From Candidatus Limnocylindrales bacterium (lineage in GTDB: Bacteria > Actinomycetota > Actinomycetes > Mycobacteriales > Micromonosporaceae), in assembly GCA_036377915.1 (NCBI GenBank), contig DASUXL010000186.1, positions 3,168-67,167 of the forward strand: a DNA stretch of 64,000 nucleotides. The letters run 5' to 3'. Both the position numbers and the translations under genes were made by a program. Within the stretch, counting starts at the first letter, position 1. Each line of letters opens with the position of its first letter. Below, in pieces: positions 25,771-32,031 of this stretch. Below the pieces are notes generated by a model that saw nothing but the letters and a program-made list of their open reading frames with translations, was not told the DNA's origin and ran no database searches.

Positions 25771-26301
25771 TCAGAGGTACTGCCCCGGGGTCTTGCCGCC
25801 GTCTTGCGGGGAGACCGGTCCGGCAAGGCCGGGCGGGAGGGCGCGGTGGCCGCCGCGCATCTGCTCAAGCTGCATCCGGGCCGCCATCTGCTGCGCCACC
25901 AGCGCCGCCTGGATGCCGTGGAACAGGCCCTCCAGCCAGCCGACCAGCTGGGCCTGCGCGACCCGCAGCTCCGCCTCGCTCGGGGTCGAGCCCTCGGTGA
26001 ACTCGGTGGAGATCCGCTCCAGCTCCTGGCGCAGCTCGGGCGCGAGGCCGTCCTCCAACTCGACGATCGACTTGCGGTGGATCTCGACGAGCCGCTCCCG
26101 GCCGGCCTCGTCCAGCGGCGCCGAGCGCACCTCCTCGAGCAGCTGTTTGATCATGGTGCCGATGCGCATCACCTTTGCCGGCTGCTCGATCAGGCGGGAT
26201 GGGTCGTCGTCGCGTTCGCTTACCGCGCCGATCGGTGCGCCGTCCGGCCCCACTACGACGACGGTCTTCTCCTCGGGCTGCTGCTCTGTCACGTTGGCCA
26301 T
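25771..26301 (-). CDS. bpa: Bacterial proteasome activator Bpa/PafE
   Basis: EQPAKVMRIGTMIKQLLEEV, ELRVAQAQLVGWLEGLFHGIQ, C-terminal GQYL; true start may be GTG 26292 (TAGGAT-N7-GTG). Confidence 0.93.
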   Translation of the reverse strand: MANVTEQQPEEKTVVVVGPDGAPIGAVSERDDDPSRLIEQPAKVMRIGTMIKQLLEEVRSAPLDEAGRERLVEIHRKSIVELEDGLAPELRQELERISTEFTEGSTPSEAELRVAQAQLVGWLEGLFHGIQAALVAQQMAARMQLEQMRGGHRALPPGLAGPVSPQDGGKTPGQYL

Positions 26302-26430
26302 CCTACTGAGCCGATCTAAGATCATCCCAAGAAGCGGGTTGCCCTACTTCCGCCATTGACGCGTGCGGCCGGTACAGGGTAGAACGCCTCAGTGGCCATA
26401 TCTCGGCCACATTGCCCTGGGAGGGACACA

Positions 26431-29995: not shown

Positions 29996-30180
29996 GCATT
30001 GCCGCCGCCGGCCGATGGTGCGTAATCGCGTGTGGCGGGCCGCAGGCCCGACATCTCCGATTGCGCACTTTCGGCGTTCGGGATCTGATCATCTGGCAAA
30101 CACGCTTTTTCGTTTGCCAGATGATCAGGCACGATCGTCGGCTCCCCAGGCGGCAATGCCGCGCGTTGCTTTGCACGCGC
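29996..30180. repeat. Intergenic long-hairpin element, copy E2 (extra arm), plus terminal 20-nt hairpin
   Basis: Outer stem gcattgccgcc 29996-30006/30149-59; 17-bp stem 30085-101/30112-128; arm 30011-75; gcgcgttgctttgcacgcgc at 30161-80. Confidence 0.75.
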
Positions 30181-30185
30181 CAGAA

Positions 30186-31214
30186 TTACAGATACTGCCC
30201 GATCCGTTCGTCGCCTTCGGGGGACCGGCCACCCGGCTTGTCCCCCTCGACGAAGAAGCGCTTGCCGCCGAACTCGCCGTGCAGCCGGTCGTCGAGTTCG
30301 TCGGCGAGGCCGGTCATGACCTGGATCGCCAGGGACAGGTGGGTGGCCTGGAAGTCACGGCCAAAGACCGGCACCGACGCCCACACCGTGCCGGAGGTGC
30401 AGTAGAGCCGGCCGATGGGCATGCGGTTGGTCAGTTCGGAGAGCTTGACGAACAGCTTCTCGCTCGGTTCGATCTCGGTGAGGACCGGGGAGAAGACGTC
30501 GATGAGCGGGGGATTGTCGCGGACCCGGACGAAGACCATGGCGGATCCGGCGCGGATGCCGATGTCGCCGTCGCCGTCGACGGCAAGCTCGTCGGGGTCG
30601 GTCTTGGTGAGGGCGGCGACCACGATGCGGACCCGTTCGGCGAGGTCGAGGCCTGCCAGCGAGACCGATTCGATGGTGGGGATGGCGCTGTCCAATGAGG
30701 ACTCGTGCCGGGCGGAGGCGAGCTGGGTCACGGTGAGCGCGTTGTCCTCGCCGTCGCGCGTGGCGTAGACGAGGAAGGCGGGGTGCGGCGCGCCGTAGAC
30801 GTCGCGCAGCGTCCGCGTGACGATCGTCGCGACGGCATCGCTGTCGTCTTCGCTGCTTGCCAGGCCGAAGCTGTCACCGGAGCCGGCCAGCACTCCAGGC
30901 GGCGACCAGCCCAGCGCCACCATCCGCGCGACCGAGGCGCGGTCGAGCCGGAAACCCTCCGGCAGGCTGGCGTTCCCGACCGCGAGGGCCGTGGTGCCGG
31001 CGTCGGTCTTTCGCACGCTGACCCCGTAGACCGCGTCCCCGGTGCCCGAAGCCGTCGGGTCCAGCGTGACCTCAAGGCGCGATCCGGCGGGCAACGTCGG
31101 CAGCGCACCCTGCAGCGCACGCGCGAAATCGCGCCAGGCCTCGGTCACCTTGGCACCTAGATCGGCCGTTGTCGGCTCGTCCAACAACTCCGCCTCCGGC
31201 AGATCTGATGGCAT
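30186..31214 (-). CDS. Two-domain T3SS/YbjN peptide-binding chaperone-like (TY-Chap) protein with C-terminal GQYL
   Basis: N-domain W..F...L, MVALGWSPP, TLRDVYGAPHPAFL; C-domain DGDGDI.IRAGSAMVFV, ADELDDRL...FGG; last codons GGG CAG TAT CTG TAA. Domain call from recall. Confidence 0.7.
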   Translation of the reverse strand: MPSDLPEAELLDEPTTADLGAKVTEAWRDFARALQGALPTLPAGSRLEVTLDPTASGTGDAVYGVSVRKTDAGTTALAVGNASLPEGFRLDRASVARMVALGWSPPGVLAGSGDSFGLASSEDDSDAVATIVTRTLRDVYGAPHPAFLVYATRDGEDNALTVTQLASARHESSLDSAIPTIESVSLAGLDLAERVRIVVAALTKTDPDELAVDGDGDIGIRAGSAMVFVRVRDNPPLIDVFSPVLTEIEPSEKLFVKLSELTNRMPIGRLYCTSGTVWASVPVFGRDFQATHLSLAIQVMTGLADELDDRLHGEFGGKRFFVEGDKPGGRSPEGDERIGQYL

Positions 31215-31252
31215 GGGTTGCCCTCCGTGTTCCGTATGTCCAGGCGACGCTT

Positions 31253-31474
31253 TCAGGCGCGCACCAGCGCTGTCAATCGGTTGGCCAGCTCGTGCGGATC
31301 TCCGCCCCGCCCGACAGCCAATCCCAGCAGATATGTGCTGATGGGGGCAGCGGGTCGGGCGGCGTTGTGCGCCACCTCACGGGCGAGGTCGAGCACCAGC
31401 TCGGTGTCGACGTCGGCGGCGGTGAGCCCGAGCTCGGCCGTTGCCGACGCGATGAACTCCTCAAGCTTGTTCAT
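31253..31474 (-). CDS. Small Moco-associated protein (DUF6457-like)
   Basis: VLDLAREVAHNAARPAAPISTYLLG; coupled to mobA. Confidence 0.75.
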   Translation of the reverse strand: MNKLEEFIASATAELGLTAADVDTELVLDLAREVAHNAARPAAPISTYLLGLAVGRGGDPHELANRLTALVRA

Positions 31475-32031
31475 AACAGCCTTTCAGCTAGTTCCAGGTC
31501 CTGCGGCGTGTCGCAGTCGAACCACGGCGGGGGTTCTTTGCCGGTCCACCGGATTGCGCGGACGTTGCCCGTTCCTTTCAAAAGATCTTTCATTTTCACG
31601 GGTACCGATTCAAGCGCCCCGGACAGGGCGGGCGCTCGCCACAGGGAAACCATCGACTGCCATCTTCCTTCATCATCCACATACAGCACCGCCGCGCCCG
31701 AGTGCTGTCGCAATGTCGCCAATGCCGTTGTCGTCAGGAACGGCAGATCCGCCGCGACCACCGCGATCTCGTCCGCGCCCGCGCATTGGGCCATCCCGGC
31801 CGCCAGCCCCACCACCGGACCTCCGCCCGGCGGCTGCTCGCGGGTCAGCTCCACCCCGTCGGGCAGTTCCGGCCGCAGCTGCGGCGGGCCGACCACGACG
31901 ATGCGGTCCGCGTCGGCGACCGCCGCGATCACGCGGGAAAGGATGGTGCGGCCCTTGATGCGCAGCAGCGGCTTGAGCACGCCGCCCATGCGGCTCGCCT
32001 CGCCCCCGGCCAGCACAATCGCGGCGTACAT
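31471..32031 (-). CDS. mobA: Molybdenum cofactor guanylyltransferase MobA-like
   Basis: IVLAGGEASRMGG..K, GGGP..G, AADLP, DCDTPQDL. Confidence 0.8.
   Translation of the reverse strand: MYAAIVLAGGEASRMGGVLKPLLRIKGRTILSRVIAAVADADRIVVVGPPQLRPELPDGVELTREQPPGGGPVVGLAAGMAQCAGADEIAVVAADLPFLTTTALATLRQHSGAAVLYVDDEGRWQSMVSLWRAPALSGALESVPVKMKDLLKGTGNVRAIRWTGKEPPPWFDCDTPQDLELAERLL

Follow-up and report, generated by a model that had tools for sequence, protein, structure and literature searches.

A chaperone-fold protein with a conserved GQYL-type C-terminus, encoded near bpa, as a candidate 20S proteasome partner in Actinomycetota

The window (the whole stretch of DNA analysed, 64,000 nucleotides of a Micromonosporaceae genome assembly) was found to possess an ORF on the minus strand at 30186-31214, the 342-aa translation of which ends in GDKPGGRSPEGDERIGQYL directly before the stop codon. 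This gene, its parts and the neighbouring genes referred to below are as follows:

30186..31214, minus strand: TY-Chap3 + TY-Chap1 protein with C-terminal GQYL (P0001, 342 aa; translation, Pfam)
30771..31142, minus strand: TY-Chap3 domain (PF22552), residues 25-148 (Pfam E 1.5e-26; pLDDT mostly >90)
30249..30647, minus strand: TY-Chap1 domain (PF22551), residues 190-322, YbjN / class I T3SS-chaperone fold (Pfam E 3.2e-41)
30201..30248, minus strand: variable linker, predicted to be disordered, residues 323-338 (pLDDT 42-54 in the last three blocks)
30186..30200, minus strand: G-Q-Y-L-stop, candidate 20S alpha-pocket docking motif (translation, homologue ends)
31221..31226, minus strand: GGAGGG, ribosome-binding-site-like, 6 nt 5' of the ATG (direct reading)
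31253..31474, minus strand: 73-aa ORF resembling DUF6457, co-oriented and directly upstream (the matching ORF of locus L142 matches PF20058)
31471..32031, minus strand: MobA-like NTP transferase, co-oriented, upstream (domain scan)
25771..26325, minus strand: bpa, bacterial proteasome activator (PF10759, E 3e-71), ending DGGKTPGQYL

By score and fold, the 342-aa protein belongs to PF22551/PF22552; it belongs to neither the Bpa nor the ARC family. Its TY-Chap1 and TY-Chap3 domains score 140.5 and 93.8 bits, respectively, against a curated cut-off of 27, the NCBIfam scan gave no match, and no AAA, OB or BPA domain was detected by Pfam, NCBIfam or the structural model. The predicted structure (64 sequences; mean pLDDT 88.7, pTM 0.66) consists of two confident domains and a low-confidence C-terminal stretch from about residue 323, in agreement with the original prediction of a GQYL end behind a flexible linker. 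The TY-Chap1 part has the T3SS-chaperone fold (a beta meander with flanking helices); the fold search barely probed the N-terminal (TY-Chap3) domain, and the Z values therefore concern the TY-Chap1 part, which matched SicP, 2plg, STM2138, YscB, ExsC, AmyR and DR1245 at Z 11.3-12.7. For residues 189-320, Z was 12.7 against SicP (1jyo; rmsd 2.5, 123 aligned; VIA-align) and 12.7 against 2plg (rmsd 3.1, 124 aligned), with 11.6 against AmyR (5fr7). The FP domain of PI31/Fbxo7 type (4l9c) reached Z 5.2 (rmsd 3.5, 92 aligned), within the range that the tool calls common, and no PAC entry was present among the 50 matches listed. TY-Chap3 has been described as a circularly permuted TY-chaperone fold (PMC9503650). 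The Pfam domains and fold matches thus bear out the earlier description of the body as of T3SS-chaperone/YbjN type and not an ATPase or Bpa bundle. No phage match was found among 50,697 records, and PADLOC returned no match for the 3 proteins checked. A short hairpin at 30150-30162, just 3' of the stop, is terminator-like on the plus strand and was graded as weak, since 5 terminator-like sites were found against 2.6 expected.

The GQYL end is beyond chance, because among the 4771 coding-like ORFs of the source genome (coding-like by a GC-skew proxy, not by annotation) GQYL-stop was expected 0.016 times and seen twice, in the TY-Chap ORF and in Bpa. The looser pattern GxYL-stop was expected 0.47 times and seen five times in the same set. 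All 217 close homologues of the protein end in G-[QM]-Y-[LI] (GMYL 189, GQYL 27, GMYI 1). Within them, positions -1, -2 and -4 hardly vary and 99% have Arg at -6, whereas linker positions -10 to -14 reach a conservation of only 18-35%; the 18-26 residues that follow FGG[KR]RF are poorly conserved and variable in length. The close homologues with names belong to Micromonosporaceae, the only family among the named matches of the profile search.

Distant homologues from the genomes sampled, with 26-43% identity over the matched part, end in GAYL, GGYL, SGYL, PGYL, TGYL, GLYL or SPYL, many of them having Gly at -3 and not at -4. Ends of the form GxYL, xGYL or SPYL were found in distant homologues from at least 12 of the sampled Actinomycetota families, and the tail recurs down to approximately 25% domain identity. 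A TY-Chap1-domain tree retained 205 of 261 sequences, those left out lacking 80% of the domain or its end, and in this tree 100 rows are tailed, 35 carry a long extension and 70 have short ends, the metagenomic representatives among the sequences including fragments and frameshifts. The tail label changes 19 times on the tree, and branches with strong support demand at least 4 of these changes; on a midpoint-rooted tree of only 132 columns, one old gain followed by many losses and several gains are indistinguishable. Alignment A3 shows an invariant Y and L by construction, its rows having been picked for the tail, and this was not taken as evidence. A G-x-Y-[LIF]-stop pattern, counted in the DNA of 31 genomes, did not clearly exceed a reversed-pattern control, and the counts were left unused. 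The tailed TY-Chap feature is real and conserved, and the conservation among orthologues that had been proposed as a check of the original prediction was found in all the close homologues and in 100 of the 205 domain-complete tree rows.

The second proposed check was whether the tail occurs only together with the proteasome, for which prcA alone was searched as the marker. Pooled per genome, tail and prcA occurred together in 44 genomes, the tail without prcA in 0, prcA without the tail in 41 and neither in 7 (Fisher P 0.013, with kin not independent; the prcA-negative set of 7 includes several weak or partial TY-Chap1 matches). All tailed genomes therefore had prcA and none of the prcA-negative genomes was tailed, as the original prediction required. 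Two rows were dropped from this count, the incomplete source genome (G000) and G340, where the frame leaves the contig; removal of the unpublished genomes G001 and G048 lowers the tailed, prcA-positive class to 42 and leaves P unchanged. The source assembly itself, which is 71% complete, contains no prcA and no arc, and prcA was present in 30/30 relatives, including both of the same genus and the unpublished G424.

The TY-Chap domain is distributed more widely than the tail. In a 400-genome phylum sample prcA was found in 186 genomes and a PF22551 match in 40, of which 35 had prcA, and a 400-genome class sample added 53 further genomes with the domain (prcA in 50/53). Among the 85 prcA-positive genomes with a TY-Chap1 match, 41 carry tail-less copies only, which makes the tail an optional feature of the family; in its place, these copies have Chap-C (PF22554) or a short C-terminus. 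Taken together, the TY-Chap proteins are not a dedicated proteasome family, and the restriction to prcA genomes holds for the tail and not for the domain. Sampling of families f2 and f4 yielded no tailed copies, and PF22551 matched 0/11 and 0/33 sampled genomes of f4, though prcA was present in 11/11 (phylum sample).

Outside Actinomycetota, 16 Chloroflexota homologues (L208-L223) end in [LP][VL]N and none is tailed; no PF00227 match was found in the 15 Chloroflexota genomes searched, a set that represents one clade of bins of unstated completeness. Three of these homologues have genes for an aldehyde dehydrogenase and a primary-type sigma-70 factor nearby. The one plasmid match, a homologue on a gammaproteobacterial Methylocalor plasmid, ends in AYKH, and a 100-genome sample from the phylum of G803 gave 4/101 matches with 0 tailed. 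At L234, on a contig titled Rokubacteria, frameshifts interrupt the TY-Chap homologue, in a genome with PF00227 matches. For the metagenomic GGYL-tailed representatives, 0 of the 20 clusters looked up carried an organism name, and the hosts could include proteasome-less taxa.

The gene lies 3.9 kb from bpa on the same strand with three plus-strand genes between, which rules out a shared operon. The original prediction was right about the distance, strand and GQYL end of bpa, and its boundary at 26301 corresponds to the second ATG of the gene. Recent copying of the tail from bpa was also rejected, as the codons of the two tails differ and the proteins have no significant similarity. A TY-Chap gene less than 7 kb from bpa was also seen in G297, G402, G412, G416, G417, G609, G667 and G721, with the two genes on different contigs in G401, and this nearness is confined to Micromonosporaceae. 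Other neighbours scanned in the window were a beta-propeller protein, Lrp, a solute-binding protein, DUF4192 and HAD proteins, besides the MobA-like protein and Bpa. Across loci, the neighbours are mostly lineage-specific housekeeping genes, such as an ArsA-type ATPase in f16 and Lgt in f10. The only linkage to a proteasome locus among the loci examined was seen in G051 (L131, G051:C63:2167-3267, minus strand), where the tailed TY-Chap gene is divergent from ttuA-trmI-arc-(Pup ligase family)-prcB-prcA.

Iyer et al. (2022, PMC9503650) described TY-Chap proteins as having a chaperone role in ARG-centred anti-ADP-ribosylation systems, and the main text of that paper has 0 occurrences of "proteasome" or "Pup". 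The neighbours typical of such systems are ARG, a phosphatase and a Nudix/WYL regulator; the protein described here differs in having no ARG neighbour and a conserved candidate docking tail. The scanned neighbours of the window gene include no ARG gene, and none was present among the candidate ORFs scanned at other loci (72 of 121 and 31 of 57); membership of an ARG system was rejected on these neighbours. The likeness to TY-Chap1/TY-Chap3 and to the YbjN/AmyR/DR1245/T3SS class I chaperones is that of Pfam scores above the cut-off and fold Z values of 11-12.7.

Among known proteasome partners, Bpa/PafE (PF10759; Rv3780) is similar in having no ATPase domain, in ending with GQYL behind an unstructured stretch of some 20 linker residues, and in being restricted to proteasome-bearing genomes (for TY-Chap, the tail only) and usually encoded away from the prc locus (PMC4254994). 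The linker of 18-26 residues matches the 21-residue unstructured tail of Bpa, which forms a dodecameric ring with 12 tails (bioRxiv 10.1101/249060). In contrast, the TY-Chap protein has no BPA domain and no sequence similarity to Bpa, would by analogy with solved relatives of its YbjN/T3SS-chaperone fold be dimeric, and belongs to a family in which the tail is optional. Bpa ends read at 24 loci were GQYL (13), GPYL (7), GMYL (2), GTYL (1) and STYL (1). Both GMYL, the majority end of the TY-Chap proteins, and a non-Gly residue at -4 thus occur within a known 20S activator family, while xGYL ends, with Gly at -3, have no precedent among the Bpa and ARC ends read here. Mpa/ARC (TIGR03689) shares the GQYL end (19/19 ARC loci); unlike it, the TY-Chap protein lacks AAA and OB domains and shows no sign of using ATP or binding Pup.

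A direct search detected Bpa in 19 of the 41 tail-bearing genomes, and G297 has it too, which leaves 21 in which it was not found. In family f16 only one of the 17 tail-bearing genomes gave Bpa, those in which it was not found being G007, G052, G067, G095, G123, G136, G149, G230, G241, G274, G296, G307, G329, G351, G362 and G383. The state of this family, with prcA present, ARC ending in GQYL where read, and Bpa mostly not found, runs against a review claim of Bpa in every proteasome-bearing actinobacterium.

The domain make-up, fold, predicted disorder and tail conservation computed here, together with the restriction of the tail to prcA genomes, make the tailed TY-Chap protein a strong candidate, on sequence grounds, for a new kind of 20S partner. 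That the GQYL tail enters the pocket between alpha subunits, for docking of some kind, is in our view probable, and at this step the protein may work like Bpa. By analogy with Bpa and Mpa, the penultimate Tyr would stack on a PrcA Arg and the terminal carboxylate would pair with a PrcA Lys, between two alpha subunits. The corresponding mycobacterial contacts are those of the Tyr with PrcA R26 and of the terminal carboxylate with K52 (bioRxiv 10.1101/249060), and R24 and K50 of alignment A2, taken as their equivalents by spacing without alignment to the mycobacterial protein, are invariant in 48 PrcA sequences of relatives. The Gln of GQYL has been reported to be dispensable (PMC12288473).

That the docked protein acts as an ATP-independent 20S adaptor is likely, if not by much, and again rests on analogy. 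Its chaperone domains would bind a client chain that is extended or partly unfolded, the protein probably being dimeric, since the YbjN and class I T3SS chaperones with solved structures form dimers that bind client peptides (PMC5398634). In the weakest step of the proposal, the protein, having one tail or only a few, would keep its client tethered at the gate without opening the gate fully, and would work beside Bpa or ARC, or replace Bpa in the lineages where Bpa was not found. Tethering is more likely than sole gate opening because such folds form dimers and a Bpa ring with six tails is inactive. The original prediction had allowed for either an adaptor or a gate opener; its adaptor part is partly supported here and its gate-opener part is weaker.

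The tail could also dock on the alpha ring with a regulatory outcome, the protein either competing with ARC or Bpa and so blocking them or serving assembly as a chaperone like PAC1-PAC2 (Pba1-Pba2); we regard this as unlikely. A dimer would offer few tails, and the comparison is with small two-chain, non-ATPase 20S partners: PAC1-2 docks by HbYX and blocks regulators, while PI31 combines a dimeric alpha/beta domain with an unstructured tail and does not use the alpha pockets (PMC13022661). Tail conservation and co-occurrence with prcA fit a regulator as well as they fit an adaptor, and the fold resemblance to the FP domain, the only one to PAC1-PAC2 or PI31 among the matches listed, leans weakly in the same direction, its Z value being in the common range. 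However, the body is a client-binding chaperone fold and the gene is not routinely in the prc locus, and the patchy distribution, with about half of the prcA genomes that have the domain being tail-less, argues against a general assembly factor.

It is likewise unlikely that the GxYL/xGYL end merely resembles the 20S motif and serves another actinobacterial partner or as a degradation tag. The C-terminal ends of the family swap (tail; Chap-C, often with a QLxLF-like motif; short LVN), as modular docking sites would, and the tail is present on several unrelated folds. Both the tail and the proteasome are concentrated in Actinomycetota, and shared ancestry could explain part of their co-occurrence. 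Against this, the PrcA pocket reads a Tyr-Leu pair (bioRxiv 10.1101/249060), the tail spectrum overlaps that of Bpa, and no tail was present in any prcA-negative genome examined, Actinomycetota included. A stand-alone gate opener like Bpa, assembled as a ring or higher oligomer with many tails, is improbable: the tail is identical to that of Bpa, the linker is of similar length and Bpa was not found in many tail-bearing genomes (16/17 in f16), but YbjN and class I T3SS chaperones are dimeric (PMC5398634) and the six-tail Bpa ring failed to drive degradation (bioRxiv 10.1101/249060). Short motifs do arise randomly and 12 of the 4771 coding-like ORFs end in YL, yet a chance or functionless relic is very improbable given that G, Y and L/I are kept in all 217 homologues despite a varying linker and that the end recurs at about 25% domain identity.

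Two further proteins of the source genome carry a similar end. A GroES/Cpn10 paralogue (PF00166; L205, G000:C55:22752-23087, minus strand) ends in STGLYL, and another at locus L036 of G297 ends in NTGLYL; GroES is a heptamer, and a sevenfold ring would match the symmetry of the alpha ring. A DUF5925 + AAA ATPase (L206, G000:C78:20723-22174, plus strand) also ends in STGLYL, with GLYL, GYYL or GMYL ends at 5/5 other DUF5925 loci (L235-L239; present in 5/25 genomes searched). From its sequence, the tailed DUF5925 protein is a candidate further proteasomal ATPase.

The bacterial 20S activators listed to date are Mpa/ARC, Bpa/PafE and Cpa (PMC8223512; PMC12288473, 2025), and the more recent of these sources states that additional factors must exist. 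In the literature searched, most subscription papers being outside its scope, no description of the tailed TY-Chap family as a proteasome partner was found, in line with the first reading of the DNA, which knew of no description but allowed for one; the same literature yielded nothing on YbjN together with the proteasome. ProEnd reports 982 actinobacterial HbYX proteins and may list GMYL-ending members, the TY-Chap family being unnamed in its main text (PMC11475706). The family may have been missed because families f2 and f4 yielded no tailed copies and because the motif search by which Bpa was discovered used a single genome, that of M. tuberculosis (PMC4254994). If the proposal is true, a chaperone-fold 20S partner would be a fourth, structurally unrelated kind, would show how particular clients might be selected without Pup or ATP, and would give a concrete job to the YbjN-type fold, the cellular role of which is poorly understood (PMC5398634). 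More speculatively, and in our estimation rather doubtful, Actinomycetota might possess a so far hidden set of proteasome adaptors that use the T3SS-chaperone fold, are specific to their clients and need neither ATP nor Pup, in which the last residues are swapped to route the body (GxYL to the 20S; Chap-C with a QLxLF-like motif possibly to the sliding clamp) and Bpa is replaced in some classes. With the tailed GroES paralogues and DUF5925 ATPases, these would form an alpha-ring docking network beyond Mpa, Bpa and Cpa.

A QLxLF-like end (13 of 154 non-YL rows; QQSLFDDPS in Rhodococcus) is often seen in TY-Chap proteins without the tail, most of which have Chap-C, the loci and proteins being L154, L155, L159, L160, L174, L182, L185, L188, L189, L224-L233, P0192, P0252, P0253 and P0268. 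QL[SD]LF is a sliding-clamp motif, and the QLxLF-like ends resemble it. A three-domain form (P0163, P0166, P0172, P0194, L150, L151, L244-L247) has an extra N-terminal domain of about 115 aa that starts MPRYRFRWE and has no Pfam match, and it occurs with either a GGYL tail or Chap-C. In the metagenome scan this form was found at 6 loci, of which 3 were read to the stop (1 tailed, 1 Chap-C, 1 short). The L244 copy sits 5' of a PD-(D/E)XK nuclease and a UvrD helicase-nuclease.
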